This document shows positions 16,227 through 40,196 of a stretch of DNA of 64,000 nucleotides, piece after piece. The position numbers were made by a program, and so were the translations under genes. The stretch's first letter is position 1. Every line of letters starts with the position of its first letter. Below the pieces are notes generated by a model. That model did no database searches. It saw only the letters and a list, made by a program, of their open reading frames with translations, and was not told where the DNA came from. Source of the DNA: an uncultured Alphaproteobacteria bacterium (lineage in GTDB: Bacteria; Pseudomonadota; Alphaproteobacteria; HIMB59; GCA-002718135); assembly GCA_902618385.1 (NCBI GenBank), contig CACNAF010000002.1, forward strand, positions 30,988 through 94,987. The letters are read 5' to 3'.

Positions 16227-17075
16227 TTATAGAATTTGAAAATAAACAACCGAAATACCACTCACTATTAAAACAGAAGGTATTATTCGAGATTTTGCAT
16301 TCTTCTCAAATAAGAAAAGCATTCCAATAATTGCAGCAAACACAATGCTTATTTCTCTAATACTAGAGACATAAGCTATTTCTATAAATTGCATACTCCA
16401 AACAACAATTGCGTAACTACTTGTTGCAAACACACCAGCAGCAATCCCAGATCTAAAAGTGTATGTTTCTCTTTTTCGTAAACCATCTTTCGAGATCAAA
16501 CCAATAATTAGTAGAGGTATTCCATTAAGTGTGAAGAGCCAGTAAATATAGGAAAAACCATTTTCAGAAAGTCTAACCCCGACCCCGTCAACTAAAGTGT
16601 AAGCAGTAATTAGAATAGCCGTTGATATTGCGAGAGCAAAACCTCTGAAGTTAAAAGATAAATTTTTAGAATAAGAAATTAAAAATAAACCAATACAAAC
16701 AATTAATATTCCAACAAAACCAGCAACACTAATATCAGAACTTAAAAATAAAATACTAATGATCGCTACAAACAAACATGAACTTCCTCTAGAAATTGGA
16801 TATATGTAAGAGAGATCACCGTACCTATATGAGTAGATAACATTTAGTCTGTAGAAGACATGAATGATTACGGTTGCAATTAAAAAATACCAAACCTCTA
16901 AAGTTGGAAATGGAACAGTAAATGTTAAAGGTAAAAAAATAGTAACTTCTAAGACAGACGTTATACCCATTAACGATAAAGGGTTCTTACTTGATTTTAT
17001 TATAGCACTCCAAACTGCATGACATAGAGCAGAAACAAGAATTAAGATAAAAATAAAATTTACTGACAATGTCAT
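16227..17075 (-). CDS. DMT/EamA-like membrane transporter
   Basis: 282 aa with about 10 TM segments. Lies 14 nt downstream of the ABC permease genes on the same strand. Confidence 0.7.
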   Translation of the reverse strand: MTLSVNFIFILILVSALCHAVWSAIIKSSKNPLSLMGITSVLEVTIFLPLTFTVPFPTLEVWYFLIATVIIHVFYRLNVIYSYRYGDLSYIYPISRGSSCLFVAIISILFLSSDISVAGFVGILIVCIGLFLISYSKNLSFNFRGFALAISTAILITAYTLVDGVGVRLSENGFSYIYWLFTLNGIPLLIIGLISKDGLRKRETYTFRSGIAAGVFATSSYAIVVWSMQFIEIAYVSSIREISIVFAAIIGMLFLFEKNAKSRIIPSVLIVSGISVVYFQIL

Positions 17076-17089: not shown

Positions 17090-17983
17090 TTACTTCATGC
17101 CTGTCAAAGTAATTCCTTCAATAAATCGTTTTTGCGCGATTATAAAAGCAACAATAAGGGGTACTGTTACTGTAACTATCGAAGCCATCATAGGACCAAA
17201 TTCATCACTATCAATTCCACCTCTGAATTCTCTTATACCAAGTGGTGGAGTAAAGAGATCTCTATTTCCTGTTATTACCATACGAGGCCAGAAATAATCA
17301 TTCCAGTGTGCAACAACTGAGAATATTGCAAAAGCAAGTAACGCTGGTATTGCAGTTGGAAGCATTACTTTCCATACGATTGCGTACTCTCCCATGCCGT
17401 CCATCCTGGCGGCATCAATTAATTCATCGGGCACAGTCATAAAAAATTGCCGCATTAAAAAAATTCCAAACACCGATATAGTCCAGGGAAGTATCAAGGC
17501 GGAATAGGTGTCAACTAATCCTGCCTGGGCCAACATAACATATAATGGAAGCGCAATTCCGTGAACTGGTATGAGCAAGCAAAATAAAACCATCGAGAAA
17601 ACAAATTCTCGTCCGTAAAATCGTAACTTGGCAAGTGCATACGCGCACGGTAAGGCGACTAAAACCTGAATGATGAAGATTGATAAAGTAACAATGACAC
17701 CATTCATTAAGTATCTAGGAATAGGAGCTTTTTCAAAAGCAAACCAATAGTTGTATTGATATGGCTTCATTGTACATGTTTCTTCTGAATAGCCAGTTTT
17801 AACACACACGGGAAACGTTTGAGTTTCTTGCGCACCAATAAGACCACCAGAAATTGATTGGATTTCTTGCTGAGATTTTAATGACATTGAAACCATCATA
17901 TAAAAAGGGAGCATCACTACGATTGCACCAATAATTAAGATTGCATGCTTCCAACCTTCTCCAATATATTGTTTAGCTTCCAT
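17090..17983 (-). CDS. CUT1-family ABC permease (UgpE/MalG-like)
   Basis: 297 aa with 6 TM segments and an EAA loop (DAARMDGMGEYAIVWKVMLP). Confidence 0.85.
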   Translation of the reverse strand: MEAKQYIGEGWKHAILIIGAIVVMLPFYMMVSMSLKSQQEIQSISGGLIGAQETQTFPVCVKTGYSEETCTMKPYQYNYWFAFEKAPIPRYLMNGVIVTLSIFIIQVLVALPCAYALAKLRFYGREFVFSMVLFCLLIPVHGIALPLYVMLAQAGLVDTYSALILPWTISVFGIFLMRQFFMTVPDELIDAARMDGMGEYAIVWKVMLPTAIPALLAFAIFSVVAHWNDYFWPRMVITGNRDLFTPPLGIREFRGGIDSDEFGPMMASIVTVTVPLIVAFIIAQKRFIEGITLTGMK

Positions 17984-18939
17984 TAATAATGAACCCTCTT
18001 CTCAATGACATATCTTTGGAAAAACGTTAAAACAAGAATAAATCCAATAAAGACAACAGTGATTGCTGCACCGATACTTGTTAAGTTTTGTTGAATAGCT
18101 TTTTCAAAGATTGCATACATCATGACATACGTTGTTTTTGATGGACCACCTTTGGTCAGTATTTCGATTGTATCAAATACTTGAAACGTTCTAATTGTAG
18201 TAATAGTCACAACAAACAACGTTGTTGGACCAAGCATTGGCCATGTAACAAGTTTAAATTGCTCCCATGTAGATTTAGCCCCATCCATTTCTGCAGCTTG
18301 GTATAACTCCCTTGGTATACTTGTTAAGCCAGCTAAATATAAAACCATATTAAAACCAAAAGCCTGCCAAATTCCTATGAAACATACTGTCCAAATCGCA
18401 GTATTTTTTTGTTTTAACCAATATGGAAAATCCATGTTGTTTGCACATGCTACAGCATACCAGCTTTCTTGTGAGTCTACCCATGGCAACCAATGAAAAC
18501 CAAGAATGAATTCCCTAACTCCTCCACACCCATTCGCTAAAAAACTATTTACAATTCCTAATGTTGGATGAAGAGTAAATTCCCATGCAATTGCCATTGC
18601 AAGAAGAGTTGCCATAACTGGAAGAAAAAAAATTGTTTTATATATATCAGCGCCAAACCTTAGTGAGTTTAAAAGCATAGCAGCACATAATCCAAGTACA
18701 ACAGAAATTGGAACGACAACAATAACATACGTCGCTGTGGCCCAAATCATTTTGACATATGTTTTTCGATTGAACATCTTGTCATAATTTTCTAGTCCAA
18801 CCCACTCGAATGTTTTGTTTCCTAAATTGTAGTCAGTAAAAGAAATACCTCCTGCAAGAAAAAGAGGAAAGATTAAAATAATTATCATCAGTATGATTGC
18901 TGGTGCAATAAACCATATGTGAGCTTTTGAATTATGCAT
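17983..18939 (-). CDS. CUT1-family ABC permease (UgpA/MalF-like)
   Basis: 318 aa with an EAA loop (QAAEMDGAKSTWEQFKLVTWP). Its stop overlaps the start of the next permease. Confidence 0.85.
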   Translation of the reverse strand: MHNSKAHIWFIAPAIILMIIILIFPLFLAGGISFTDYNLGNKTFEWVGLENYDKMFNRKTYVKMIWATATYVIVVVPISVVLGLCAAMLLNSLRFGADIYKTIFFLPVMATLLAMAIAWEFTLHPTLGIVNSFLANGCGGVREFILGFHWLPWVDSQESWYAVACANNMDFPYWLKQKNTAIWTVCFIGIWQAFGFNMVLYLAGLTSIPRELYQAAEMDGAKSTWEQFKLVTWPMLGPTTLFVVTITTIRTFQVFDTIEILTKGGPSKTTYVMMYAIFEKAIQQNLTSIGAAITVVFIGFILVLTFFQRYVIEKRVHY

Positions 18940-20065
18940 TAGTAAATTGAACTCTCATTCCTGCTTGATTAAATAGTAATGCTTTATCTGAAACTCTTTT
19001 AATATTCACACTAGAACCGTTTGAAATTTGGTGTGTAAATTGAGGTAAGCCCCTTACAATTATTTTATTTGAACCGTCTTCAATATTTACATGAAAGAAA
19101 ATATCTGAACCTAAATTTTCTCTATATGCAACTATTCCACTAAATGTATTGTCATTACTTTCATTTGTAATTTCTAAATGTTCTGGTCGAATACCAATAT
19201 GTAAATCTGTATTACTTTCAGAACTTTTTCTTTTTAAATTAACGTTGAGAAAACTTACTGTCCCACTTGAGTCCGAAGTTCCTTCAAATATATTTATTTT
19301 TGGACTTCCAACAAACTGAGCCACACTTAATGAGGAAGGATTGTCATATACTTCTTGAGGTGTATCAAGTTGTAATAAATTTCCATCAATCATAACAGCC
19401 ATTCTAGAAGACATAGTTAATGCTTCTGCTTGATCATGTGTAACGTACACAAAAGTAGTTTTAAGTGAATTATGAAGTTCAGATAGTTCAGAACGCATGT
19501 GAACTCTCAAAGCCGCATCTAAATTTGAAAGAGGCTCATCCATTAAAAAGGCAACAGGCTCTCTTACCATAGCACGACCAAGAGCAACTCTTTGTCTTTG
19601 ACCACCTGACAATTGTCCAGGTTTTCTATCTAATAGTTCTGAAATTTTTAAAGTTTCAGAAGTTTTATTTACTAATTGATTTATAGATTCTGTTTTCTCT
19701 TTTTTGCTTGGAGAAAAATTACCAATCAAGGGTAGTCTTTCAAATGCATTATAATCTCTAAGTCTTAATGGAGTTTCTAAATTTCTTCTTACTGTGAGAT
19801 GAGGATAAAGAGCATATGATTGGAATACCATCGCCAAATCTCTTTCACTGGCTCTAACTCTATTTACATTTTTATTATCTATTAATACATCACCCGAAGT
19901 TTGTTGTTCCAATCCTGCAATTATTCTAAGTAATGTAGATTTACCACAACCAGATGGACCAACTAATGTTAAGAATTCTCCATCGTTTATGTCAACATTC
20001 AAATTATTAAGTACTTGTGTAGACCCAAATGACTTTGAAATATTTTTAAGTGATATAGTCCCCAC
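18932..20065 (-). CDS. CUT1-family ABC ATP-binding protein (UgpC/MalK-like)
   Basis: Walker [10 protein letters not shown], signature LSGGQRQRVALGR, Walker B FLMDEPLSNLD, and a C-terminal regulatory domain. GTG start with GGGGGA 6 nt upstream. Confidence 0.88.
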   Translation of the reverse strand: MGTISLKNISKSFGSTQVLNNLNVDINDGEFLTLVGPSGCGKSTLLRIIAGLEQQTSGDVLIDNKNVNRVRASERDLAMVFQSYALYPHLTVRRNLETPLRLRDYNAFERLPLIGNFSPSKKEKTESINQLVNKTSETLKISELLDRKPGQLSGGQRQRVALGRAMVREPVAFLMDEPLSNLDAALRVHMRSELSELHNSLKTTFVYVTHDQAEALTMSSRMAVMIDGNLLQLDTPQEVYDNPSSLSVAQFVGSPKINIFEGTSDSSGTVSFLNVNLKRKSSESNTDLHIGIRPEHLEITNESNDNTFSGIVAYRENLGSDIFFHVNIEDGSNKIIVRGLPQFTHQISNGSSVNIKRVSDKALLFNQAGMRVQFTNA

Positions 20066-20241: not shown

Positions 20242-21483
20242 GTGTCCGATAACTTAGAAATTAATAAAAGAGAATATCCAAGTAATTTTTCAAAAACTGC
20301 TATTGTGATTTGCCTTGATGGTAGTCAAAAAGAGTATCTCGAAGAAGCATCAAAATCAAATCTTACACCAAACCTTGATAAATTAATTGCAAGTGGTGAA
20401 AACCTACTAGTACACAGCGCTATTCCAAGTTTTACAAATCCAAATAATATTTCGATTGTAACAGGCCAACCAAGTTCTGTTCACGGTATATGCGGGAACT
20501 TCTTTTATACACCCGAGACCGGTGAAGAAGTAATGATGAATGACCCAAAATATATGCGAGCACCAACTATTTTTGAAAAATTTTATAATTCTGGTTCTAA
20601 AATTGCTCTGGTTACTGCAAAAGATAAGCTGAGAACACTTTTAGGAAATGGATTAAGTTTTGATGATGAGAGAGCTATTTGTTTTTCTGCTGAAAAATCT
20701 GATCAAGCAACAAAAGATCTCAATGGTATAGATAATGTAAACGATTGGTTAGGGATGCCAGTGCCAGAAGTATACTCTGAAGAACTTTCTGAATTTGTAA
20801 TGGCTGCAGGTGTAAAGCTTCTTGAAGAGTTCAAACCAAATATCATGTATTTATCGACTACGGATTATATTCAACACAAATATGCGCCAGGAAATGAAAC
20901 AGCAAATAAATTTTATGCAATGTTTGATAAATATATTGGTCTTTTAAATAAGGAGAATGTTTCTATAATTATCACAGCAGATCACGGTATGAAACCAAAA
21001 TCAAAAGAAGATGGTTCACCTAATGCAATATTTTTACAAGATTATTTAGATAAAAAATTTGAACCAAACATGGCTAAAGTTATTCTACCAATTACAGATC
21101 CATATGTTGTGCATCATGGTTCACTTGGTTCTTTTGCAACAATTTATTTAGAAGACAAAAGTAAGATAGATTCAGTTGTAAATGCTATAAAAGAAATAAA
21201 AGATATAGAAGTTGTTTTAACAAAAGACGAAGGATGCTCTACTTATAATTTACCTCCAGATAGAATGGGGGATATTATATGTATGTCTTCAGAATTTATG
21301 ACTATTGGTTCATCAGAAGATAAACACAATCTTTCTGGATTAAATGAACCTTTACGTTCACACGGTGGACTTCATGAAAGAGAAGTGCCATTCATATCAA
21401 ATTTAAAATTACAAAATTTAGATACTAACAAACAATTATATAACTATGATGCATTTTACTATGCAATTAACGGAGCCCTATGA
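20242..21483 (+). CDS. phnA: phosphonoacetate hydrolase
   Basis: Alkaline-phosphatase/NPP superfamily. Nucleophile motif [14 protein letters not shown], plus TADHGM and SHGGLHE. 413 aa with a GTG start. Overlaps the following ALDH by 4 nt, as in characterised phnA-phnY pairs. Confidence 0.82.
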
Positions 21484-22922
21484 TGCACAAAAAAATGATT
21501 AATGAAGCAATGCGTATTGCTGGAGAAAAAGTTACCTCAGATAAAACAATAAATGTTGAGTACCCTTTTACAGGTGAAGTAATCGGAACGGTTCCAGCCG
21601 GTACTGCAGAGCATGCAAGAAAGGCTTTAGATATTGCTGCAAATTACCAACCTAAACTTACAAGATACGAGAGACAAAAAATTCTTCAAACTGCTGCAGA
21701 AGTACTTGTTAAAAGAAAAGAAGAAATTTCTGATATTATTACTTTAGAACTTGGTATCTCAAAACAAGATTCTTTATACGAAGTAGGAAGAGCTTTTGAT
21801 GTCTTTTCATTAACGGCTCAACTTTGTATTCTTGATGATGGAGAAATATTTTCTTGTGATTTAACTCCGCATGGAAAAGCGAGAAAAATATTTACCATAA
21901 GAGAACCTTTAACGGCAATTTCAGCAATCACTCCATTTAATCATCCTTTGAATATGGTAGCGCATAAAATTGCACCTTCAATTGCAACTAATAATTGTAC
22001 TGTATGTAAACAAACAGAATTAACACCCTTAACAGCAATGGTACTTGCTGATGTTTTATATGAAGCAGGTTTACCACCAGAAATGTTTTCAGTTGTAACT
22101 GGATGGCCTCAAGACATTGGATCAGAAATGATCAAAAATCCAAACATTGATCTCATTACTTTTACAGGCAGTGTAGGTGTAGGAAAATTAATTGCTGAAC
22201 AAGCTGGATACAAAAGAACAGTTCTTGAGCTAGGCGGTAATGATCCTTTAATTGTTTTAAACGACTTAGATGGTGATGATCTTAAAAAAGCTGTTGAGCT
22301 AGCTGTTACTGGAGCAACGAAAAACTCTGGTCAACGTTGTACAGCTGTTAAAAGAATACTGGTTCAAGAATCCATTGCAGATCAATTTGTTGAAATGGCT
22401 CTTGAGCGTGCTAAGAAAATTAAATTTGGTGATCCTATGAATATGGAAACAGACTTAGGTACGGTTGTTAATGCTCAAGCTGCAGAACTTTTTGATAAAA
22501 GAGTTTCTATGGCTGAAGAAGACGGTGCAAAAATTTTATATCACCCTGGAAGAAAGGGTGCTTTGTTACCTCCAATAGTTGTAGATCATGTTGATCCTAA
22601 AAGTGAATTAGTTTTAGAAGAAACATTTGGTCCAGTTATCCCAATCATTCGTGTGCCTAATGACGATGAAGCTGTAATGAAAATATCTAATTCAACCGCA
22701 TTTGGATTATCATCTGGTGTATGTACAAATAACTTCATGCGAGCAAAAAAATATATTCAAGGTTTAAATGTTGGAACTGTAAATATTTGGGAGGTTCCAG
22801 GCTATAGAATTGAAATGTCTCCTTTTGGAGGAATTAAAGATTCAGGTCTTGGTTATAAAGAAGGAGTAATTGAAGCAATGAAAAGCTTTACTAATGTAAA
22901 AACTTTCTCGCTACCTTGGTAA
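21480..22922 (+). CDS. phnY: phosphonoacetaldehyde dehydrogenase (NAD-dependent aldehyde dehydrogenase)
   Basis: ALDH motifs ELGGNDP, catalytic Cys in GQRCTAV, and EETFGPV. The call rests on translational coupling to phnA and on phnW nearby. Confidence 0.78.
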
Positions 22923-23058: not shown

Positions 23059-24312
23059 ATGAAAAAATTAATTACAGGATTGGCAGCCGTATTAGCTTTC
23101 GGTTTTTATGGTTCTGTTAATTCAGCTAAGTCTATTGAAATAGAAGTAGCTTATCCTTATTCAGGATTATTCGATGTAACGTTTCAAGCTATTATGCCAG
23201 AGTTTGAAAAAGCGCATCCAGATATTCAAGTTAAATTTAGAGCAACTTATGAAAACTATGAAGATGCAACTGCAACAATTTTTAGAGAGTCTACTTCAGG
23301 TAACTTACCAGATGTAACGATGCAAGGTCTTAACAGACAAGCACCTCTAGTAGATAAAGGTATTGCAAAGTCTTTAGAGCCATTTATTGCAAAAGAAGCA
23401 GCTTTTGAAAAAGATGGTTACCATTCCGCTATGTTAAGTCTTTCAACATTCGGTGGTGAAGTTTATGGATTACCATTTTCTGTATCAACGCCAGTTGGAT
23501 ATTACAACATGGATCTATTAGCTGAAGCAGGTGTAGATAGTATTCCAACTAACTGGGACGAAGTTATTGCAGCATGTAATAAATTGGAAGCAGCAGGTAA
23601 AGGAACTCTATACTTTGGTTGGAACATCACAGGTAACTGGTTCCACCAAGCATTAATGCATACTCAGAACGTTCCAATGGTTAAAGATGGAGCTGTAAAT
23701 ATGGGTGGTGATGCAGGACTTGCAACGTTAGAGCAAATGAAAGCAATCATGAGTGGATGTAATATGCCAAACTATTCAATTGCTGATGGTCAAGCTGCGT
23801 TTAACGCAGGTACTATTGGTATGATGTTCTGGTCTACTTCAAGCTTGGGTTCAGTTAATGCTGCAAAGGCAGACTTTGTTTTAAAAACTGCACCATTCCC
23901 TGGAATGGCTGGAGTAAACAATGGAACACCAGCAAGATTACCAGCAGGTGGAAACGCTGCAATGTTAGTGTCTACATCTGATGATCCAGCAAGAGTTGAT
24001 GCTGCATGGACTTTCTTAAAGTTCATTACATCAGGTATCGGTGCTGCATTAGTTGCTGAAACAACTGGATATGTTCCACCAAATAAAGCAGCGAATGATT
24101 TATTAGGTGACTTCTATAGTCAAAACCCTAATAAACTTACTGCTGTTGAACAACTTCCACTTCTTGCTGATTGGTTTGCGTATCCTGGAGAAAATGGATT
24201 AGCTGTTACACAGGTAATCTATGATTTCACGGAAGAAATTGCTACAGGTGACGCTGATGATATGGCAGATCTTCAAGAAGAAATGATGGAAGAAATAAAC
24301 GATCTTATGTAA
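23059..24312 (+). CDS. family-1 extracellular solute-binding protein, UgpB-like (glycerophosphoryl or organophosphorus ligand inferred)
   Basis: Signal peptide. Colinear with E. coli UgpB as I recall it (HPDIQVKF..YENYED, FSVSTPVGYYNMDLLAEAG, TGYVPPNKAA). It has its own strong SD and terminator. Confidence 0.75.
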   Translation: MKKLITGLAAVLAFGFYGSVNSAKSIEIEVAYPYSGLFDVTFQAIMPEFEKAHPDIQVKFRATYENYEDATATIFRESTSGNLPDVTMQGLNRQAPLVDKGIAKSLEPFIAKEAAFEKDGYHSAMLSLSTFGGEVYGLPFSVSTPVGYYNMDLLAEAGVDSIPTNWDEVIAACNKLEAAGKGTLYFGWNITGNWFHQALMHTQNVPMVKDGAVNMGGDAGLATLEQMKAIMSGCNMPNYSIADGQAAFNAGTIGMMFWSTSSLGSVNAAKADFVLKTAPFPGMAGVNNGTPARLPAGGNAAMLVSTSDDPARVDAAWTFLKFITSGIGAALVAETTGYVPPNKAANDLLGDFYSQNPNKLTAVEQLPLLADWFAYPGENGLAVTQVIYDFTEEIATGDADDMADLQEEMMEEINDLM

Positions 24313-24342: not shown

Positions 24343-24375
24343 ACAGCGGCTTTATAAAAGCCGCTGTTTTATTTT
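24343..24375 (+). terminator. rho-independent terminator or attenuator after the SBP gene
   Basis: ACAGCGGCTTT-ata-AAAGCCGCTGT (11-bp stem) followed by TTTATTTT. Confidence 0.8.
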
Positions 24376-24399: not shown

Positions 24400-25479
24400 A
24401 TGCCTCTTACAACAACTACAATAGGTGCTTATCCAAAACCTAAACAAACACCCATTCAAGATTGGTTTTTAGGGACAAAATCAGAAGAAGAGAGAAAAGC
24501 ATCAAAAGGATTATTATCAAATTGGTCACCTGGCGCATATGAAAAAGCATTAGAGTCTGCAGGTGCGGATGCTGAAAAATTATTTTTAGCAGCAATTAAA
24601 GAAGTTATAACTGATCAAGTGAGTGCGGGTATTGATGTTCCAACAGATGGGGAAGTTAGGCGTGAGAGTTATGTATTATATCAATGTCGATTTTTAAATG
24701 GTGTAAGTTTTAAGGAAGTTACACATAAGTCAGTAAGACAGGGTGCGTTCGAAGCTGACCTTCCAACTATTGTTGCACCAATTTCAAGTAAAGAAATACG
24801 TATGCATTTAGACTGGAAGAGTGCACAACAATTTACAAAAAACCCAGTTAAAATTACGCTACCTGGACCAATGACAATTACAGATTCAATTGCCAACAAT
24901 TACTATGATGACATGAAAAAACTTGGTTTTGATTTAGCATTAGCCCTCAATAAAGAAGTTAAAGCACTTGTAGATGCAGGTTGTCAGTATATTCAAATTG
25001 ATGAACCAGTATTTGCTAGAAAGCCCGATGAAGCTCATTCTTACGGTATGGAAAATTTAGAAAGAATGATGCATGGTATTCCTAAAGAAGTGCAACGCGT
25101 TTGCCATATCTGTTGTGGTTATCCTAACTCATTAGATTCAGAAGGGTATAAAAAGGCTGATCTAGATGCTTATGATAGAATTGCATCACTTGTAGATGAT
25201 TCAACTATTGATGAAGTATCTTTAGAAGATTCACATAGGCATAATGATTTAAATCTTTTAGAAAAATTTACTAAAACAAAAGTAATTTTTGGATTTATTG
25301 ATATTGCAAAAAGTAGAATGGAGTCTGTTGAAGAGGTAAGAGTTCGTATCAAAGATTCACTTGAACATATTGATGAACACCGCTTAATAGCTGCACCAGA
25401 TTGTGGTTTAGGTTTCTTTACACGAGAACAAGCAATTGAGAAAATGACAATTTTAACTAAAGCGGCAAAATCAATTTAA
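24400..25479 (+). CDS. core-MetE-like protein: cobalamin-independent methionine synthase catalytic domain only (Zn-dependent thiol alkyltransferase)
   Basis: 359 aa. TTTIGAYPKP, PTDGEVRRE and YIQIDEPVF match the MetE C-terminal domain. Zn ligands are present: H-x-C in VCHICCGY, E in VSLEDS, C in APDCGLGF. There is no N-terminal folate-tail domain. Confidence 0.8.
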   Translation: MPLTTTTIGAYPKPKQTPIQDWFLGTKSEEERKASKGLLSNWSPGAYEKALESAGADAEKLFLAAIKEVITDQVSAGIDVPTDGEVRRESYVLYQCRFLNGVSFKEVTHKSVRQGAFEADLPTIVAPISSKEIRMHLDWKSAQQFTKNPVKITLPGPMTITDSIANNYYDDMKKLGFDLALALNKEVKALVDAGCQYIQIDEPVFARKPDEAHSYGMENLERMMHGIPKEVQRVCHICCGYPNSLDSEGYKKADLDAYDRIASLVDDSTIDEVSLEDSHRHNDLNLLEKFTKTKVIFGFIDIAKSRMESVEEVRVRIKDSLEHIDEHRLIAAPDCGLGFFTREQAIEKMTILTKAAKSI

Positions 25480-25483: not shown

Positions 25484-26596
25484 ATGTGGAATTATTTTAA
25501 TCCTGTTGAAATTATCTTTGGAGAAAATAGATTTAAAGAAGTACATGATGCTCTTAAAAATAAGAACTACATCATAATCACTCATCCAGAAGAAATTTTT
25601 AAAAAATATAGCGATGAATTAAAATCTTCTTCAAATCCACCACTATCCATTATGACGGATGTTCAGCCTAATCCAGATTATAAGGATATTTTAGAGCTAC
25701 AAAAAAAATTTTCTTCAATCAATGAATCGGTAGATTATATTTTAGCTATAGGTGGTGGCTCTGTTACAGACACAGCTAAAGCAATTGCTGCATTTAAAGA
25801 TAAACAAGAATATCTGACAGATTTCGTTCGCAATAAGAAAAGTCCAAGAGTCGAAAATCCAATCAAGATTATTGCAATACCTACAACTTCAGGAACATCA
25901 AGTGAGCTTACGTGTTGGGCCACAATTTGGGATAAAGAAAAAAACAATAAATTATCTTTGGCGCATAAATCTCTTTATGCAGAAAAAACAATTATCGATC
26001 CATCTATTATGGTTGATAAGCCTTTAGGCTTGACCATTTCAACTGGTTTAGATGCTCTCTCCCATTCAATGGAAAGTATTTGGAATATTAATGCAAATCC
26101 AGTTTCTGCTTCTCATGCAATACAAGCATCAAAATTAGTATTAGAAAATTTACCACTTCTCACTAAAGATTTAAGAAGTGTTGAATTACGCTCAAACATT
26201 GCATTGGCGTGTGTTCATGCTGGTTTAGCGTTTTCCAATACGAAAACTGCTATTGCGCACAATCTATCATACCCTGTGACACTCAATTACGGTATTCAGC
26301 ATGGTATTGCTTGTTCATTTACTTTACCCATGATTACTAAAAGTATGGTTGGAATTGATAGTGTCGCTGAAGAAAGACTAAAGTTAATTTTTAACGATAA
26401 CCTTGAAAATGCCGCAAATCATCTGAGTGAATTTATGCGTTCTTTAGAGGTTCCTCTTAACTTAAATGAAATAAAAGTTCCTGTTCAAGAATGGAATAAT
26501 ATAGTAGATGATGCGTTTTTAGGGGAACGAGGTAAAAACTTTATTGGCAATAAAGAAGCCTTTATCTCTTCTGCTAAATCAATGGGACTTTATTAG
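25484..26596 (+). CDS. iron-containing (group III) alcohol dehydrogenase; candidate phosphonoacetaldehyde / 2-hydroxyethylphosphonate oxidoreductase
   Basis: GGGSVTDTAKAIA, PTTSGTSSELT, and metal His motifs LSHSMES and IAHNLSYPV...HGIAC. 370 aa. The substrate is inferred only from context. Confidence 0.75.
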   Translation: MWNYFNPVEIIFGENRFKEVHDALKNKNYIIITHPEEIFKKYSDELKSSSNPPLSIMTDVQPNPDYKDILELQKKFSSINESVDYILAIGGGSVTDTAKAIAAFKDKQEYLTDFVRNKKSPRVENPIKIIAIPTTSGTSSELTCWATIWDKEKNNKLSLAHKSLYAEKTIIDPSIMVDKPLGLTISTGLDALSHSMESIWNINANPVSASHAIQASKLVLENLPLLTKDLRSVELRSNIALACVHAGLAFSNTKTAIAHNLSYPVTLNYGIQHGIACSFTLPMITKSMVGIDSVAEERLKLIFNDNLENAANHLSEFMRSLEVPLNLNEIKVPVQEWNNIVDDAFLGERGKNFIGNKEAFISSAKSMGLY

Positions 26597-26598
26597 TA

Positions 26599-27705
26599 AT
26601 GAAAAAAAATTTCAGGTTTTATGATAACAGACAAAAATACTTGCTATTTGTCACAACAACAAATGAAAAAAATCAAATTGCTGATGCTATACGCCCTCAC
26701 GTAAATAAAATTAAACCTCAAAAACCTGGCATAAAAATATTTGATGCTGGTATGGGTGATGGTTCCTTACTTATGAATGTTATGCGTCAGTGCCACGAGG
26801 CTGAGCCTAACGTACCTTTATTAGTTTGCACAAAAGAAATAAGCATAGAAGATGTAAGATTAGGTTTAGAAAAGTTACCCGATAGGTTTGTTGAGCATAA
26901 GAATACCGTTTTTGTCATTTCAAATCTACACTACGCGGAAGCCGCAAACCTAAAATCAAAAAATGAAGTTAAACAGAAAAAAATTAATTGGAATATTATT
27001 AAATTAAAAGGAGATACCTCTCTTGAATTTGCCCAACAATTAAGAGAACAAAATGAATTTCTAGAAAAAAAATGGAATATAGAAATTAATAAAAAATCAG
27101 GTAACCATACTTATAAAGAGCCTTCAGTCATGGTTATCTACCGCGAAGATCAAGAATTTAATGTTAATGAATTAATACCTACCAAAAAAAAATCAGATAA
27201 TAAATTTGATCTTATTATTGCTTCACAGCCTTATCGTTCAAGAATTTCAGCAGAAAAGAAATCAAAATACGTCATCGAACCAATGATTCGAGCGTTAAAA
27301 TCAAAAGGGAAATTATTAACTATTCATGCTTCAGGAAAAGATCCTGCTAATGAAATAATTCGTAAAATTTGGCCAAAAGAGAACCCATTTCCTTCTCTTG
27401 GAAATAGTATCATTTCTTATCTTAAGAAAAATTTAGATAAAGATCTATTAAGTAGTTTATCGTTTGGAGAAAAAAGAATTATTAAATGTAAATTGAGAGC
27501 TCTACCAACAGAAATCAGTGGAGGTATAGCGACATCATTAGTTTTTTCTGCTTGGAATGCGTCCATATATGTCAATCAAATGGATGATGATCAAGTAATG
27601 AAGGTAGAAAAAACAAGAAATTATGAAAAAGTAGTCCAGAAAATAGTTTCAAAAAATAAAGGCCTTTATTTTAACAATGAAATATTTGTAATCGAAAAAA
27701 AATAA
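26599..27705 (+). CDS. class I SAM-dependent methyltransferase-like protein with a large internal insertion, function unknown
   Basis: Motif I IKIFDAGMGDGSLL, acidic post-I residue in CTKEIS. After about 120 aa come motif II FDLIIASQPY and motif III LKSKGKLLTI. 368 aa. Confidence 0.55.
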   Translation: MKKNFRFYDNRQKYLLFVTTTNEKNQIADAIRPHVNKIKPQKPGIKIFDAGMGDGSLLMNVMRQCHEAEPNVPLLVCTKEISIEDVRLGLEKLPDRFVEHKNTVFVISNLHYAEAANLKSKNEVKQKKINWNIIKLKGDTSLEFAQQLREQNEFLEKKWNIEINKKSGNHTYKEPSVMVIYREDQEFNVNELIPTKKKSDNKFDLIIASQPYRSRISAEKKSKYVIEPMIRALKSKGKLLTIHASGKDPANEIIRKIWPKENPFPSLGNSIISYLKKNLDKDLLSSLSFGEKRIIKCKLRALPTEISGGIATSLVFSAWNASIYVNQMDDDQVMKVEKTRNYEKVVQKIVSKNKGLYFNNEIFVIEKK

Positions 27706-27709: not shown

Positions 27710-28498
27710 TTATTTAAACCAATTAACTTCTGTTTTTAAAAAATCCTCTGTATGAATAATTAATGCGTCAGATCGAATTATTGCAACATTATAATTTGTA
27801 TCTGTATTTGCCGTTCCTAAACGATATTCATTTGAAAAGTTAGGTATTAGAGGAGACCAAGTACTTCTTGGGGAGGAAAAAGTAATACCACAATAAGAGC
27901 CAGAACTTGTAATGTGTTGATGACCAAAAAAAATATGTTTTATTATCTTATTATTTTTCGTTAAAATTTGTTGAAACTCTTTTTTTTGTTGTAATCCTAT
28001 TCCATCACTTTCCTCTTTTACTAATGCCAGTGGATTATGATGCATAAAGATGTACGTATCCGTATTAGTCTTACTTAAAATATTATTTAACCATTCTTGC
28101 CTCTCTTCACAATAATGTCCTTGGTGAGTGTTAATCAGATTAGTATCTATAAAAATTAAACGTTTATTATCTATATCCTTAAAGTATTGAATAAATCCAT
28201 TTGGATCGGTTTCAATATTAGGAAAGTTTATTTTAAATTCATCTCTGTTATCATGATTACCTATAATTAGTTGAGGATTTAAATTCTTCGGCAGACCTGC
28301 TTCATCAATTATTTTTAAAAATAACTGATAAGAATCTTTATCACCTAAGTCTGTAATATCACCTGTGATGGCAAATAAATCTGCATCACCATGATTATTT
28401 TTTATATGAGTTAATGCTTTTTTAAATTTACTGACAGGATCTATGCCATGAATCTTATCTATATAAATATGAGGGTCTGAAAGGTGAATAATTTTCAT
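27710..28498 (-). CDS. metallophosphoesterase, GpdQ/CpdA-like phosphodiesterase
   Basis: All calcineurin-like motifs are present: HLSDPH, TGDITDLG, GNHDNR, FMHHNP, GHQH. Colinear with Enterobacter GpdQ as I recall it. 262 aa. Confidence 0.8.
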   Translation of the reverse strand: MKIIHLSDPHIYIDKIHGIDPVSKFKKALTHIKNNHGDADLFAITGDITDLGDKDSYQLFLKIIDEAGLPKNLNPQLIIGNHDNRDEFKINFPNIETDPNGFIQYFKDIDNKRLIFIDTNLINTHQGHYCEERQEWLNNILSKTNTDTYIFMHHNPLALVKEESDGIGLQQKKEFQQILTKNNKIIKHIFFGHQHITSSGSYCGITFSSPRSTWSPLIPNFSNEYRLGTANTDTNYNVAIIRSDALIIHTEDFLKTEVNWFK

Positions 28499-28518: not shown

Positions 28519-29151
28519 TTAAATCGCAGTTTTAAAATAAATATACTTATTAAATTCTTCTTTTAAGTCGATGCTAACTCTTGCATGTACTTTACCTTGT
28601 TTTCCTTGAAACGATTGTTTTTCTGTAACTGGAAACACCCCTTCATGCCAAATATTTGGATGAATATACAAACCTTTTGATCCGTCACAATAAAATGCTT
28701 TAAAATGTTCTGGTTCAATGTCGTCTGTAGGTAAGGCTAAAGGACAAATAAATGGTTTATTTTCTGTAGGAAAAAAAAGCTGACCTCCATCAGGATGATA
28801 ATTTGCATGCCATAAAAAAATTTTTGTTGGATCTGAATATTTATCTTTTTGTAATTCTTGATCAGGATTATTGGCATAACCCAGTATATATTTTCCATCT
28901 ACTTCATAATCGCTCTTATGTTGGACAGCATTATTTTGTCCATAAAGCACGTCACCTTGCCACCAGGTATCAAAAGAACCTTCGGTAGTTCCACCTTCAT
29001 TACCAGTTCCCTCTTCTATGTCACGCCATCCTTGTTTTGGCCAAGTAACAATTTCAATATCACTATTTTCAAAACTATCGATTAAATACCCGTATCCTTT
29101 AAGATTTTCATTTGTTGCTTTAACTAAAGGTATTTCAATTTCTTTTGTCAT
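28519..29151 (-). CDS. ureidoglycolate-lyase (AllA)-like beta-barrel protein, function unknown
   Basis: Colinear with E. coli AllA as I recall it: LKGYGYLID vs FSAYGDVIE, ANYHPDGGQLFFP vs ERHPLGTQAFIP, GLYIHPNIWHEGVF vs GVNYHRNVWHHPLF. It carries about 50 extra residues. Confidence 0.6.
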   Translation of the reverse strand: MTKEIEIPLVKATNENLKGYGYLIDSFENSDIEIVTWPKQGWRDIEEGTGNEGGTTEGSFDTWWQGDVLYGQNNAVQHKSDYEVDGKYILGYANNPDQELQKDKYSDPTKIFLWHANYHPDGGQLFFPTENKPFICPLALPTDDIEPEHFKAFYCDGSKGLYIHPNIWHEGVFPVTEKQSFQGKQGKVHARVSIDLKEEFNKYIYFKTAI

Positions 29152-29158: not shown

Positions 29159-30256
29159 TTAGTTTAATGTTAATCCCAACTCAGTAACAACTTCTTTTAC
29201 AGCTTTTATTGTATCCATCATGTCTTGTTCATTTAAATTACCAATACACCCAATTCTAAAAGTTTCTGCCACTGTTAGTTTTCCTGGATAAATTAAAAAA
29301 TCTTTTTCACTAAGAGCATTATAAAATTTATCAAAGTTAAATTTAGGATCATTAGGATGTTTAAAAGTAATAATAATTGGTGCTTGTAAATTATCAGGAA
29401 GTAGTTGCTCAAATCCCAACTCTTTCATTCCATTACAAATAATTTCACAATTTTTTTTATATCTTTTACCTCTTCCCTCTACACCGCCTTGTTCTTTATG
29501 TTCCTCAATCGCTTGGTTGAATGCAGCCAATACGTGTGTTGGAGGTGTAAATCGCCATTGTTTATTTTTTTCCATTGCTTGCCATTGATCATACAAGTCT
29601 AGACTTAGTGAGTGACTATTGCCTTTTGCATTTTGAATAACTTCATTTTTAACAAGAATGAAACCAACACCTGGCACACCTTCTAAGCATTTGTTTGATG
29701 AAGCGGCTACAGCATCAAAAGTAATTGTTTTAGAACTTAAGGGTAATGCACCAAAGGCACTCATTGCATCGATGAATAACGATAAGTTTTTCCCTTCAAC
29801 CAATTTTGCAATCTCTTCAATAGGATTTAAAATACCCGATGTTGTTTCACAATATACAGCAAAGACGTGTGTTAAGTTGTTGCTATCAATTAACTCTTCA
29901 ATTTTATTGATGTCATGTACTTCATGTTCAGCAACTTCATATTCAATAAAATCTCTCCCTAAATAAGTGCACATTTTTTTCATTCTTTGTCCGTAAGCAC
30001 CATTGATCAGAATCAGAATTTTAGAATCTTTTTGAGTAAGAGAGCTCACCATTGACTCTACAGCAAAAGTTCCACTTCCCTGCATTGGAACACATTGATA
30101 TTTATCTTCACCGTCTATTAATTTAACAAGGGAATCTCTAATTGATGCATTGAGATCAATAAATTTTGTATCTCTCGAACCCCAATCATGAAGCATAGCC
30201 TCTTTTGTTGACATCGATGTCGTGAGAGGACCAGGGGTTAATAATTTTTTATCCAT
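29159..30256 (-). CDS. phnW: 2-aminoethylphosphonate--pyruvate transaminase
   Basis: Class V aminotransferase. LLTPGPLTTS N-terminus and HDWGSRDTKF, as in characterised PhnW. 365 aa. Confidence 0.85.
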   Translation of the reverse strand: MDKKLLTPGPLTTSMSTKEAMLHDWGSRDTKFIDLNASIRDSLVKLIDGEDKYQCVPMQGSGTFAVESMVSSLTQKDSKILILINGAYGQRMKKMCTYLGRDFIEYEVAEHEVHDINKIEELIDSNNLTHVFAVYCETTSGILNPIEEIAKLVEGKNLSLFIDAMSAFGALPLSSKTITFDAVAASSNKCLEGVPGVGFILVKNEVIQNAKGNSHSLSLDLYDQWQAMEKNKQWRFTPPTHVLAAFNQAIEEHKEQGGVEGRGKRYKKNCEIICNGMKELGFEQLLPDNLQAPIIITFKHPNDPKFNFDKFYNALSEKDFLIYPGKLTVAETFRIGCIGNLNEQDMMDTIKAVKEVVTELGLTLN

Positions 30257-30344: not shown

Positions 30345-30920
30345 ATGAGAATGGAAGAAAATATCGTAGATTATCTCTTAGATCTTTTGAAAACAAAAGG
30401 TGCTGATATTCAATATGGTAATGAGGATGTGACTCAGCTTGAGCACGCACTCCAATGTGCTGAACTTGCTGAAAAACATAAATTACCAGGACCAACAATT
30501 GCTGCAGCATTACTGCATGATGTTGGCCACCTTATTTATGAGGACGGCGATCCCATTCATGAAGGGAAAGATGGTCATCATGAAAACTTAGGTGCTGATT
30601 TTTTAAAAAAATATTTTGGTGAAGATGTTATTTTACCAATTAGAGCACATGTTGATTCAAAAAGATATTTATCAAGTGTTGAAGAAGGTTATTATGATAG
30701 TCTATCAGAAGCATCGAAACTTTCGTTAAAAGTTCAAGGCGGTCCTTTCACAAAAGAAGAAGCAGATGCGTTTATCAGCAAACCTTTTATGGATGAGGCA
30801 GTAGAGCTTAGAAGATTTGATGATCTAGCAAAAATTCTAGATAAAAAAACTCCCGATGTTGAACATTTTCGCCCCTATTTAGAAGAAGCAAGACAGTCTT
30901 TTTTAGCTAAACAAGCGTAA
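30345..30920 (+). CDS. phnZ: HD-domain diiron oxygenase PhnZ family (C-P cleaving; 1-hydroxy-2-aminoethylphosphonate dioxygenase-like)
   Basis: QLEHALQCA, AALLHDVGH, HHENLGADFL, AHVDSKRYL and LSEASKLSLKVQGGPF are colinear with characterised PhnZ as I recall it. 191 aa. Confidence 0.8.
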   Translation: MRMEENIVDYLLDLLKTKGADIQYGNEDVTQLEHALQCAELAEKHKLPGPTIAAALLHDVGHLIYEDGDPIHEGKDGHHENLGADFLKKYFGEDVILPIRAHVDSKRYLSSVEEGYYDSLSEASKLSLKVQGGPFTKEEADAFISKPFMDEAVELRRFDDLAKILDKKTPDVEHFRPYLEEARQSFLAKQA

Positions 30921-31445
30921 ATGCAATTTAGCAATTATGATTTTATTGACTCTAAGTCATTTGCAGGAAAAATTATATTAACTTCTTTTCCAGGTCTTAA
31001 CTCTAATGGTTTATTTGAAGAAACAATTTTAGCAAACGAATTAGAAATGTTTAAAAATAATAATTGTAGTTCTATTACTTCTTTTGTTGAAGATAGCGAA
31101 TTTGAAAAATTGTGTGATAAAACTTTGTTTGTCAAAAGTATTTATAAACATAAATTACATTGGTACCATTTACCCATTTATGACATGGGAGCACCAGATA
31201 AAGATTTTAAATATAAATGGGAAACAACAAAAGTTTTATTAAAGAACGAATTGATAGATGGTAAAAATATAGTCTTACATTGTCGTGGAGGAAAAGGAAG
31301 AGCTGGCACTATAGCTGCTATTTTACTTGTTGAATTTAATTATGAAAAACAAGAAGCTATTGATCTTGTACGATCAAGAAGAAAAGGAGCTATTGAATCT
31401 AAAATACAGAAAGATTTTATTTTTTCTTATCGAGCAGTTAATTAA
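30921..31445 (+). CDS. cysteine-dependent (dual-specificity/CDKN3-like) phosphatase
   Basis: P-loop HCRGGKGRAGT (HCX5R-S/T). 174 aa. The ATG directly abuts the phnZ stop. Confidence 0.75.
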   Translation: MQFSNYDFIDSKSFAGKIILTSFPGLNSNGLFEETILANELEMFKNNNCSSITSFVEDSEFEKLCDKTLFVKSIYKHKLHWYHLPIYDMGAPDKDFKYKWETTKVLLKNELIDGKNIVLHCRGGKGRAGTIAAILLVEFNYEKQEAIDLVRSRRKGAIESKIQKDFIFSYRAVN

Positions 31446-32494
31446 AAAGAGACCGTTAAATTAAAAATATTTTCTAGAATAAATAAAACAATTAAAGAAA
31501 TTAAAGCTGCAATTATAGGTAGCGTCATCCAACCCAAAGAAATTCTACCCGCAATTGACCATTGAACCTCTTTTCCTCCTTTTAAAAGACCAATTCCAAT
31601 TACGCCGCCAACAACAGCTTGGGAACTTGATACTGGTACCAAAGGTATAGAGGGAAGATTTATAGATTGTAAAAAAGCACTTATGCCCTGGGATGCAAAT
31701 AAAAATAAAACAATAGAATGCGATATAACAACAATAAATGCTGCCACTGGTGTCATTTTTAAGAGATCATTACCCACGGTAAACATAACTCTTTTCGAGT
31801 AGGTAAAAACACCAACAGCTATGGCTAAACCACCCAGCAGAAATAGTTGTTCTTTTGAGGAAAAGACAAATAAATTTCCAATAGTAACATCAGTAAACGG
31901 TGATATAGGTACGAAGACACCCATTACATTGGCAATATTGTTTGCACCTAAACTATAAGCACCAAAAGCACCGGCTAAAAGTAAAGCTGTTCTTGTATAG
32001 GCATCAAGTCTGAGAATATGTAACTTTCTATTGAGTATAACTCTTTTTGTAAAAGTAAATAAACCCATTGCAATAACTCCTGCAATAATAGGACAGAGTA
32101 TCCATGTTCCTAAAATAGTAATTAAAACTTGAAGATTAGTTGAAGATCCCGTGTATAAATTCCAACCAACAATTGCTCCAACAATCGCTTGCGTTGTAGA
32201 AACAGGCAAGCCAACTTTGGTCATTAAATAAACGGATATGCCTGCAGCCACACATGCTGCAAAGGCACCAGGTAATGCATTAATAGCACCTAACTTACCT
32301 AAAGTTTCTGTTGTTCCTGCTCCACTAATAATTGCACCTAGAATAACAAAGACACTACAAATTATTGCTGCACTTGTGAAACTAACCATTCGCGTCCCAA
32401 CAGCAGTTCCAAAAACATTTGCTGCATCATTGGCGCCAAGTGACCAACCTAAAAAAAGACCACCAAATAAAAAAATCAGAATTGTAATTTCCAT
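31442..32494 (-). CDS. inorganic phosphate transporter, PiT (PHO4) family
   Basis: Duplicated GANDAANVFG and GANNIANVMG signature. About 10 TM segments. 350 aa. Confidence 0.88.
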   Translation of the reverse strand: MEITILIFLFGGLFLGWSLGANDAANVFGTAVGTRMVSFTSAAIICSVFVILGAIISGAGTTETLGKLGAINALPGAFAACVAAGISVYLMTKVGLPVSTTQAIVGAIVGWNLYTGSSTNLQVLITILGTWILCPIIAGVIAMGLFTFTKRVILNRKLHILRLDAYTRTALLLAGAFGAYSLGANNIANVMGVFVPISPFTDVTIGNLFVFSSKEQLFLLGGLAIAVGVFTYSKRVMFTVGNDLLKMTPVAAFIVVISHSIVLFLFASQGISAFLQSINLPSIPLVPVSSSQAVVGGVIGIGLLKGGKEVQWSIAGRISLGWMTLPIIAALISLIVLFILENIFNLTVSF

Positions 32495-32500
32495 TGAAAA

Positions 32501-33163
32501 TTAAACGGAGCGTTTAATAGCGTAAATTTGAACCTCGTCAGCTATGTCTTCTGCTTGATCACAAATACGATCAATCTTCTCTACAAAATATCGAAGATGC
32601 ATTTTTTGATCTAGAGGTAATTCAGAATCAAAAATTCTTCTTGCAAGTGCACTAAATTTTATATCAGATTCTTTTTCATAAAAAGTTACTTTATGAGCAT
32701 TATCTCTAACAGATTTAATATCTCTAAAAAATGATCTTACAGTTAAACATAATGATTCAACACAATTTACAACAGTCTCTGTTAACTCAATAAGATCTTC
32801 ATGAAATTCTTTTGGAAAATTAGGTTTTTGAATAGAGAAGTGATAGCAATTTCCTTGGTACATTCCAATTAATTCGTCGATGTGTTCTAGAAGTCGTAAC
32901 ACATCACTTCTTGCATCTGGGATTAGTGTTTCTTCATAAAGAGTATGCTCAACATCTTTCGTAATTTTGTCGGCCTTACTTTCCATTTCTTTAACTTTTT
33001 CAACCATTTCCTCAAATTTACCATTGGCGGAATGATTGAGATAAGTTGGAACTATCGATTTAAATACTAAGCCCACTTCAGAGACAATATCAACAAACTC
33101 ATCAATTTCTCTTTCAAGCTTTTTGGTATCACCAAATAATGATGCACTTTTTAATCCAAACAT
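32501..33163 (-). CDS. DUF47 / PhoU_div family protein (PiT-associated regulator)
   Basis: 220 aa, helical. Conserved position immediately upstream of pit. Confidence 0.8.
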   Translation of the reverse strand: MFGLKSASLFGDTKKLEREIDEFVDIVSEVGLVFKSIVPTYLNHSANGKFEEMVEKVKEMESKADKITKDVEHTLYEETLIPDARSDVLRLLEHIDELIGMYQGNCYHFSIQKPNFPKEFHEDLIELTETVVNCVESLCLTVRSFFRDIKSVRDNAHKVTFYEKESDIKFSALARRIFDSELPLDQKMHLRYFVEKIDRICDQAEDIADEVQIYAIKRSV

Positions 33164-33200
33164 GGCGTGCTTATAGAACTTTTTAAAAAAAAAGAAAGAA

Positions 33201-33218
33201 ATGTTAAATTTTTGTTAC
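33201..33218 (+). promoter_or_regulatory. candidate Pho box upstream of the small membrane protein and arsC
   Basis: ATGTTAA-ATTT-TTGTTAC, then TAATAT 8 nt downstream. Confidence 0.4.
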
Positions 33219-33286
33219 AATTTGATTAATATCTTTATCTTTAAGTAAAGTGTAATATTCGCAATCTATAGAATTTAGGAGAAGAT

Positions 33287-33930: not shown

Positions 33931-34070
33931 TAAGTTTAAATATTAGTTTAATTTATAAAAATTTAATATTCTATTAATACGTCTGTAAAAAATAAAATTT
34001 AAATACTTTTTACCACTCACAGTATTATTTCTTCCTGCTTATGTCCAATTATTGTGAGTGGGATTAAATT

Positions 34071-36176: not shown

Positions 36177-36236
36177 AATTTTTTTTTATATTTTTTAGGT
36201 ATAAAAAAAACATGTTCATAAAAAATTCATATTTCT

Positions 36237-36695: not shown

Positions 36696-36727
36696 TCGAG
36701 TTTAATACTTTAGATGTATACATTTCC

Positions 36728-38286: not shown

Positions 38287-38306
38287 TATAAAATTACCTT
38301 AAATAA

Positions 38307-40195: not shown

Positions 40196-40196
40196 T

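Follow-up and report, generated by a model that had tools for sequence, protein, structure and literature searches.

SAR11 is the most abundant heterotroph of the surface ocean, and esters of 2-hydroxyethylphosphonate (HEP) have been reported as a major phosphonate of marine dissolved organic matter. To our knowledge, the sole documented fate of HEP until 2026 was breakdown by C-P lyase, which yields ethylene. Here we analyze a 64,000-nucleotide stretch of contig CACNAF010000002.1 from an uncultured alphaproteobacterium (the window; G+C ~31%), and in it an iron-type alcohol dehydrogenase (ADH) gene that lies with phnA and phnY and probably encodes a HEP dehydrogenase. The closest described systems are the PhpC-type (PF00465) and PbfG-type (PF00107) dehydrogenases, which oxidize HEP to phosphonoacetaldehyde in vitro (Piazza et al., Protein Sci 2026, PMC13576164). 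Genes for such dehydrogenases cluster with phnX or with phnY-phnA, and a cluster dedicated to HEP consists of phpC plus phnY-phnA (Piazza et al., 2026). The PhpC of Paraburkholderia fungorum showed appreciable activity on HEP alone among seven compounds tested and, combined with PhnX, the coupling enzyme of the phosphate-release assay, frees inorganic phosphate (Pi) from HEP. In an AlphaFold3 model of PhpC, the metal is held by Asp191, His195, His260 and His274, and HEP is contacted by Lys157 and Arg349, which form a salt-bridge clamp on the phosphonate, and by Thr256 and Tyr264; this tyrosine is strictly conserved among PhpC proteins, and a Phe takes its place in sulfoacetaldehyde reductase (Piazza et al., 2026). 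The main text of that paper contains neither "Pelagibacter" nor "SAR11". phpC has also been recorded in operons for the catabolism of 2-aminoethylphosphonate (AEP), marine genomes included, where it was read as serving the conversion of AEP to HEP (Lockwood et al., ISME J 2022, PMC9381506).

The ADH gene (25484..26596, + strand) appears in the list of open reading frames (ORFs) as an ORF of 370 aa with an ATG start. Its product carries GGGSVTDTAKAIA at residues 90-102, the first four of which (90-93) are the GGGS dinucleotide-binding motif, PTTSGTSSELT at residues 133-143, and an Asp/His3 metal site formed by D190, H194, H259 and H273. Both Pfam domains of the family pass their gathering scores: PF00465 (123.3 bits, E 9.8e-36, residues 7-173; gathering score 31.3) and PF25137 (110.9 bits, E 8e-32, residues 184-345; gathering score 27). 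On these two domains, the metal site and the GGGS motif, the protein is classed as a group III (iron-containing) ADH. An earlier account of this DNA, made from the letters and the ORF list alone (the sequence-only reading), had named the same ORF and motifs, and its coordinates, motifs and domain assignment are borne out here. Among NCBIfam models, the best match is TIGR03405 (361.9 bits, E 2.7e-108; residues 4-355 against profile positions 1-354/355), which leads by 205 bits over the runner-up family (156.6 bits); the model is Phn_Fe-ADH, [quoted passage not shown], which NCBI at present names PsrA. The NCBIfam model for sulfoacetaldehyde reductase scored 121 bits. The ADH is 97-99% identical to proteins from Pelagibacteraceae assemblies, one of which (97% identical) is labelled "phosphonoacetaldehyde reductase" by NCBI.

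The HEP contacts of PhpC (Lys157, Arg349, Thr256 and Tyr264) have identical counterparts in the window ADH (K156, R349, T255 and Y263), the numbering being shifted by one residue at most. All eight metal-ligand and HEP-contact residues align with those of homologues from Burkholderia arboris, Vibrio, Roseovarius and Roseibium and of three divergent SAR11 homologues. The B. arboris protein, a PsrA/PhpC-like homologue from a plasmid collection that scores 573 bits on TIGR03405, served as our proxy for P. fungorum PhpC. Across the ADH and 115 near-full-length homologues (46-99% identity), six of the eight active-site residues are invariant, and D190 and R349 have one exception each among the 116 sequences (a His and a gap, respectively). 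We therefore regard the ADH, by its residues, as a divergent and uncharacterized SAR11 member of the PhpC-type enzymes. Identity as a choline dehydrogenase (GbsB) was considered and set aside, given 122 bits as against 362 for TIGR03405 and a Lys/Arg clamp in the pocket that fits an anion.

The flanking phosphonate genes were identified with curated models. PhnA, a phosphonoacetate hydrolase that cleaves the C-P bond to give acetate and Pi, is encoded at 20242..21483 (+) and scores 470.1 bits on TIGR02335 (cutoff 407.55); PhnY, phosphonoacetaldehyde dehydrogenase, is encoded at 21480..22922 (+) and scores 797.4 bits on TIGR03250 (cutoff 635.65). The phnA stop overlaps the phnY start. PhnW, the 2-aminoethylphosphonate:pyruvate transaminase, lies on the opposite strand at 29159..30256 (-; NF010006, 510 bits, cutoff 296) and is predicted to be a second source of phosphonoacetaldehyde. 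All three neighbors had been named in the sequence-only reading, and each passes its NCBIfam cutoff. On the plus strand, phnA and phnY are followed by a 137-bp gap, the gene of an importer substrate-binding protein (SBP), a hairpin, a MetE-like gene whose stop lies 4 bases upstream of the ADH start, the ADH gene itself and, 2 bases past its stop codon, a gene for a 368-aa protein.

A search of species-representative genomes with the ADH left 80 matches, which form 77 loci. About 75 of these belong to genomes from single cells or metagenomes that are listed as uncultured Alphaproteobacteria or Pelagibacterales, mostly with ADHs 88-99% identical to that of the window, and were read as SAR11 or SAR11-like. 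Seventeen window proteins were compared with all fetched loci, and the counts given below have as denominator the 68 SAR11 loci with enough flanking sequence. PhnA, PhnY and the ADH occur together in all 68, in a single operon-like block. The architecture of the window is found in 62 of them, and phnW likewise in 62. The other six (L063, L064, L077, L084, L086 and L088) have an EamA gene followed by phnA-phnY-ADH-(368-aa gene), with phnY and ADH 15-100 bp apart. A divergent SAR11 contig, L005, whose ADH is 57% identical to that of the window, carries the module and lacks phnW, cupin and phnZ genes next to it. The invariant core is phnA-phnY-ADH. The gene thus sits with phnY-phnA and not with pepM or ppd, which is the clustering described for the PhpC type. 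Homologues 46-50% identical to the ADH, from Roseovarius, Vibrio and related bacteria, have LysR, ADH and PhnD-type ABC transporter genes as neighbors, and the MetE-like gene was not found beside them. One ADH homologue lies amid transposases.

Downstream of this module lies a run of genes (31442-47667 and 55288-56247) in which family scans recognized a PHO4 transporter with PhoU_div, a low-molecular-weight phosphatase/ArsC-type gene, ppk, ppx, phoR, pstS, pstC, pstA and phoH; pstB, phoU and phoB were assigned from position and the start of the sequence only. A metallophosphoesterase gene adjoins a family 4 glycosyltransferase gene, and the two are arranged like the published PlcP lipid-remodelling pair. 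By these assignments, the ADH module sits within a large phosphate-stress island given over to phosphorus acquisition. A paper on arsenic in SAR11 confirms the ArsC-type island gene and names no role for the MetE-like gene or the gene of the 368-aa protein. A promoter scan found 61 sites as against 70.5 in shuffled controls and says nothing on operon boundaries.

Genes for making phosphonates were sought across the window. The PepM motif EDKxxxxxNS is absent from all six frames of the 64 kb, and no PEP mutase, thiamine pyrophosphate (TPP)-dependent decarboxylase or HepD/MpnS-like protein was found among the window ORFs scanned with Pfam or NCBIfam. These comprised nearly all ORFs of at least 250 aa (those other than 45471-46232, 59719-61257 and 61260-63500) and a minority of the shorter ones. 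By these searches, no pepM, ppd, mpnS, hepD, nucleotidyltransferase or glycan-attachment gene lies near the ADH gene. The sequence-only reading, which saw no PEP mutase, phosphonopyruvate decarboxylase or methylphosphonate/HEP dioxygenase in the window, holds up in the six-frame motif search and in these scans.

We consider it probable that the ADH is a PhpC-type, metal-dependent HEP dehydrogenase that works in the oxidative direction and feeds PhnY and PhnA. Its residue identity with HEP-specific PhpC points to HEP as the substrate, and on the same grounds the cofactor is probably NAD and the metal probably Zn2+ or another divalent ion. The oxidative direction is suggested by operon membership, by the phosphate-stress island and by the lack of biosynthetic genes; expression would, by analogy with the characterized P. 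fungorum PhpC and from the gene context, be regulated by phosphate. In a phosphate-starved SAR11 cell of the surface ocean, the ADH would turn HEP into phosphonoacetaldehyde, the irreversible oxidation of the aldehyde to phosphonoacetate by PhnY would drive this unfavorable step, and PhnA would then cleave the C-P bond to release acetate and phosphate. PhnW would bring AEP to the same aldehyde pool, so that PhnY and PhnA would serve two entry routes. An oxidative HEP role feeding PhnY and PhnA is what the sequence-only reading had proposed, and the active-site residues, the invariant linkage, the phosphate-stress context and the absence of biosynthetic genes support it. Its further statement that no such pathway was established is out of date, because HEP oxidation by the PhpC and PbfG types has since been published (Piazza et al., 2026). 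As an oxidative HEP route ending in PhnA is already in print, the concept is not new, and the SAR11 case is a concrete, testable example of it. If the assignment is true, hydrolytic mineralization of HEP would be a widespread trait of phosphate-poor oceans, giving acetate and Pi and no hydrocarbon gas.

The module also holds genes that the three-step route does not call for. An ABC importer is encoded in two parts. The SBP (23059..24312, +; SBP_bac_1, SBP_bac_8), of the CUT1/UgpB-like kind with weak similarity to UgpB and sugar SBPs, is present in 62 of the 68 loci. Two permeases (17090-17983 and 17983-18939, -; BPD_transp_1) and a MalK-like ATPase (18932-20065, -; ABC_tran, TOBE_2; 62/68 loci) are divergent from phnA; as a block (17090..20065) they occur in 61-62 of the 68 loci and are missing exactly where the SBP and MetE-like genes are missing. 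Beyond them lies a permease of the EamA family (16227..17075, -; PF00892; 66/68 loci), which is directly divergent from phnA in the loci without the ABC genes. The MetE-like gene (24400..25479, +; 62/68 loci) encodes a core Meth_synt_2 protein (PF01717, 121.6 bits) resembling zinc/homocysteine methyltransferases. It scores below cutoff on every NCBIfam methionine-synthase model, its nearest PDB entry is 3RPD (MesD; 154 bits), and it retains the zinc ligands HxC, E and C and the homocysteine motifs DGE and DEP. No MesX/DUF1852 gene lies near it. A paper on MetE fusions (Phaeocystis) was considered as an explanation and rejected, the architecture there being another one (PKS/PP-binding/Pyr_redox fusions). 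Between the SBP and MetE-like genes, a strong terminator-like hairpin (24343..24367, +; 11-bp stem with six G-C pairs, followed by a T run) could raise the level of the SBP transcript or mark a separate transcription unit.

The ATPase, both permeases, the SBP and the MetE-like gene, a cassette divided between two separate positions of the window, are absent as a whole from the same six loci. These are scattered over several levels of ADH divergence (95, 92, 76 and 59-61% identity), so the cassette has been acquired or lost whole on more than one occasion. Because six SAR11 loci lack it, the cassette is accessory to the function of the ADH and not required for it.

The 368-aa protein encoded behind the ADH (26599..27705, +; 64/68 loci) belongs to no Pfam family; its only Pfam match is a sub-threshold one to Methyltransf_31. 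A DAGMGDG motif is invariant in 46 homologues. The protein models as a class I fold of methyltransferases dependent on S-adenosylmethionine (SAM): for the AF2 model (pLDDT 78, pTM 0.81), histamine N-methyltransferase (1jqe, E 1.6e-11) ranks first among PDB matches, and other SAM methyltransferases come next. More than 5000 homologues exist in the database, the best 120 of which are all without a functional name. ArsM was rejected as an identity, since the folds matched belong to N-, O- and S-methyltransferases of small molecules and not to ArsM. Convergent with the ADH block is a SpdA/CpdA-like metallophosphoesterase gene (27710..28498, -; 63/68 loci), whose product scores 173.9 bits on NF050112, below the cutoff, and matches PF00149. 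We infer from this that it is a candidate phosph(on)ate ester hydrolase, which would free HEP from esters.

Relatives of the MetE-like gene outside SAR11 lie on contigs of 37-70% G+C, and those in L011, L012, L092, L094-L100 and L103 are accompanied by the same type of importer. In L094, the ABC cassette is followed by a zinc-dependent ADH (Zn-ADH) gene and then by the MetE-like gene; in L100 the order is Zn-ADH, aldehyde dehydrogenase (ALDH), ABC cassette and MetE-like. The L094 Zn-ADH has as its top NCBIfam model TIGR03366 (294.9 bits, cutoff 328.1; next family 114), a [quoted passage not shown]. Identity with PbfG itself was not accepted, since the residue numbering matches only in part (Cys/Ser/Arg/His at an offset of -3) and the structural-zinc Cys cluster is lacking; only similarity to TIGR03366 is claimed. 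In L106, the MetE-like gene adjoins Zn-ADH and PhnA genes, and in L096 the cassette and the MetE-like gene adjoin PhnY (67% identical) and PhnA (42%) genes. In L093, 5.5 kb separate the MetE-like gene from a TIGR03405 Fe-ADH that is accompanied by a PhnD-type transporter. The other accessory genes recur as well: homologues of the methyltransferase-fold protein (36-40% identical) in L095, L097 and L113, a SpdA-like phosphoesterase in L092, L103 and L126, and PHO4 with PhoU_div in L012, L122, L124 and L127, all beside the MetE-like gene. Remoter MetE-like proteins (~50% identical) are found with another ABC importer, a class III aminotransferase, an ALDH and a TPP enzyme. Two unrelated ADH folds thus occur as partners of one and the same MetE-like gene, mostly together with the ABC cassette, and this is non-orthologous replacement of the kind that usually marks a shared pathway. 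The words "methionine" and "methyltransferase" are absent from the main text of Piazza et al. (PMC13576164).

The recurrent set comprises four further genes: the MesD-related core MetE-like homocysteine methyltransferase, its UgpB-like ABC importer, the SpdA/GpdQ-like phosphoesterase and the histamine-N-methyltransferase-like SAM enzyme. That genes of this set pair with both non-homologous classes of phosphonate-associated ADH and with PhnY/PhnA in unrelated bacteria hints at an upstream step. We offer, as a speculation that we hold to be doubtful, that the SAR11 module exceeds the published three-enzyme HEP route and that the accessory genes form a front end of HEP catabolism. The importer would bring in a masked HEP derivative (a phosphonate mono-ester, a methylated form, or both) from marine organic matter, and the phosphoesterase and a homocysteine-dependent dealkylation would unmask it for ADH, PhnY and PhnA. 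If this were true, alkyl transfer to homocysteine would tie phosphorus scavenging to methionine supply in a bacterium dependent on reduced sulfur. The MetE-like, ABC and methyltransferase-fold partners are a lead toward steps yet to be described, and it is in this accessory set that the worth of follow-up work lies.

The phnW side of the window carries further genes. Paired with phnW is a gene for a ureidoglycolate-lyase-like cupin of 210 aa (28519-29151, -; 65/68 loci), and beyond phnW lies a gene for a PhnZ-like HD oxygenase (30345-30920, +), which at 201 bits is just under its cutoff of 214.6. No PhnY*-type 2-oxoglutarate dioxygenase was found among the window ORFs scanned, and PhnZ may have its missing partner in the cupin; nothing on a cupin-PhnZ pairing was found in the literature searched. 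On a contig of 57% G+C, homologues of the two are adjacent on one strand (L120:4195-5442). Directly after the phnZ-like gene comes a gene for a dual-specificity/PTP-like phosphatase of 174 aa (30921-31445), present there in 53 of the 68 loci. In two other SAR11 lineages (L001:14841-21110 and L002:12893-18182), phnW is followed by a FAD oxidase gene of the DAO family together with an ABC importer, which in L001 has an OpuAC-type SBP, with a short-chain dehydrogenase gene in addition, and in L002 an SBP of the SBP_bac_1/6/11 type. These sets resemble the published PbfB/C/D routes for N-methylated aminophosphonates; their phnW-adjacent oxidase and importer genes are not in the window.

A number of observations weigh against an oxidative HEP dehydrogenase. 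The ADH misses the TIGR03405 equivalog cutoff of 423.7 bits and is 38-49% identical to the proteins that pass it. The sequence-only reading had suggested scoring against the TIGRFAMs model for phosphonate-associated Fe-ADHs, and the outcome is divided: the model is the best match by far and the score of 361.9 bits is below its threshold, so that the ADH is PhpC-type by residue criteria and a non-member by the NCBIfam criterion. For PhpC, kcat/KM is 68,000 M-1 s-1 for phosphonoacetaldehyde reduction as against 270 for HEP oxidation, a difference of ~250-fold, and phpC is rarely found in clusters that also hold phnW (Piazza et al., 2026). In the window, phnW is 2.6 kb from the ADH gene, so the aldehyde could run toward HEP. 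No Pho box (CTGTCAT-N4-CTGTCAT, three mismatches or fewer) was found near the island genes, and this consensus may not be that of SAR11. No HEP-specific transporter was identified at the locus, no characterized SAR11 homologue of the ADH was found in the literature searched, and the three-step route does not account for the MetE-like and methyltransferase-fold genes, tightly coupled as they are.

One rival reading is a salvage in the reductive direction: imported AEP would be converted by PhnW to phosphonoacetaldehyde, from which the ADH would make HEP, and this HEP, perhaps methylated by the methyltransferase-fold protein, would go into cell-surface phosphonates or methylphosphonate. A "repurposing" of this kind was proposed for phpC in AEP operons as a cheap way of making phosphonates (Lockwood et al., 2022, PMC9381506); equilibrium and the PhpC kinetics favor reduction, phnW is present in most loci (62/68), and a SAM-methyltransferase-fold gene 2 bases behind the ADH looks biosynthetic rather than catabolic. 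We nevertheless judge it unlikely. The ADH gene shares strand and block with phnA-phnY and not with phnW, and PhnA and PhnY would compete for the aldehyde. L005 has the module without phnW, the pepM, ppd, mpnS, hepD, nucleotidyltransferase and glycan-attachment genes are lacking nearby, and the entire island is devoted to phosphorus acquisition. The ADH could also be a broad-acting aldehyde reductase like PsrA or YqhD, with a role in detoxifying reactive aldehydes (products of lipid peroxidation, or the phosphonoacetaldehyde that PhnW makes) and not in nutrition. TIGR03405 is named after the PsrA of Burkholderia cenocepacia, the deletion of which raises lipid-peroxidation markers and is complemented by E. 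coli YqhD (Naguib et al., 2022). The activity of PsrA has never been measured, though, and psrA is unlinked to phosphonate genes, whereas the SAR11 gene lies beside phnA-phnY in 68/68 loci; PhpC, a close relative of PsrA, is appreciably active on HEP only among the seven compounds, and YqhD is a very distant match to the ADH (47.7 bits). This is the weakest of the options, and we think it very improbable.

The remaining explanation draws on the accessory genes. Instead of free HEP, the ADH might in truth act on a hydroxyalkyl-phosphonate akin to it, or on a HEP derivative that the importer takes up and that the MetE-like enzyme, phosphoesterase and methyltransferase-fold protein work on, which would make the ADH one step of a longer, undescribed pathway. 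The close spacing of the ADH gene to its two neighbors (4 and 2 bases), the joint gain and loss of the five cassette genes, and the pairings outside SAR11 would all fit: there the MetE-like gene lies beside Zn-ADH (L094, L100, L106) and PhnY/PhnA (L096, L106), near an Fe-ADH (L093), and beside methyltransferase-fold homologues (L095, L097, L113). Against these stand the six SAR11 loci that hold phnA-phnY-ADH without the cassette and the HEP contacts of the ADH, which are exactly those of HEP-specific PhpC; a candidate compound is also lacking. We consider a substrate other than HEP improbable, and conclude that oxidation of HEP into PhnY and PhnA is the likely role of the ADH.

On TIGR03405, other SAR11 homologues score 364-384 bits, Vibrio 401 and Roseibium 410, all below the cutoff, and Roseovarius (436) and Burkholderia (573) above it. 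Among clearly related homologues, the database label flips at 423.7 bits: those at 430-573 bits are called "PsrA" and those at 401-410 bits, below the cutoff, "phosphonoacetaldehyde reductase". Homologues under either label (430-573 and 362-410 bits) alike retain the HEP-contact residues. The PsrA label has genetics and no enzymology behind it, and may mislead the annotation of phosphonate clusters.

Compared with known systems, the closest solved structure to the ADH is the sulfoacetaldehyde reductase of Bifidobacterium kashiwanohense (6jko/6jkp; 147 bits), the template also used by Piazza et al. It acts on isethionate and sulfoacetaldehyde, the sulfonate analogue pair, and in the printed alignment has Phe where the window ADH has Tyr263. 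The PsrA of B. cenocepacia (Naguib et al., 2022) has the NCBIfam model TIGR03405 in common with the ADH; its gene is unlinked to phosphonate genes and its stress role comes from genetics only, whereas the SAR11 gene is always linked to phnA-phnY. The biosynthetic PhpC, FomC, DhpG and AglG of Streptomyces (Shao et al., 2008, as cited by Piazza et al., 2026) share family and reversible reaction with the ADH and serve HEP production from genes beside pepM and ppd; a PEP mutase, a decarboxylase and a HEP-consuming dioxygenase are all missing from the window. The PbfG/TIGR03366 zinc-dependent ADHs (PF00107) are likewise proposed to turn HEP into phosphonoacetaldehyde and have neighbors of the same kind, on a fold unrelated to that of the ADH. 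In L094, L100 and L106, the place of the Fe-ADH next to the MetE-like gene is taken by a TIGR03366-like ADH, and L094 and L100 have the ABC cassette as well; from its Pfam family and its similarity to TIGR03366, the L094-type enzyme may be a counterpart of PbfG.

The nearest counterpart is the degradative PhpC of P. fungorum (EC 1.1.1.309 in reverse). The two differ in that the window ADH is ~38% identical to the Burkholderia proxy and scores 362 bits on TIGR03405 as against 573, that its cluster also holds phnW, which Piazza et al. call uncommon, and that around it lie MetE-like, ABC, phosphoesterase and methyltransferase-fold genes, on which the main text of Piazza et al. is silent. They agree in the PF00465 fold, the four metal ligands and the four HEP contacts, including the diagnostic Tyr; in both, the gene is clustered with phnY-phnA, and in both an irreversible downstream enzyme is proposed to pull HEP oxidation forward.

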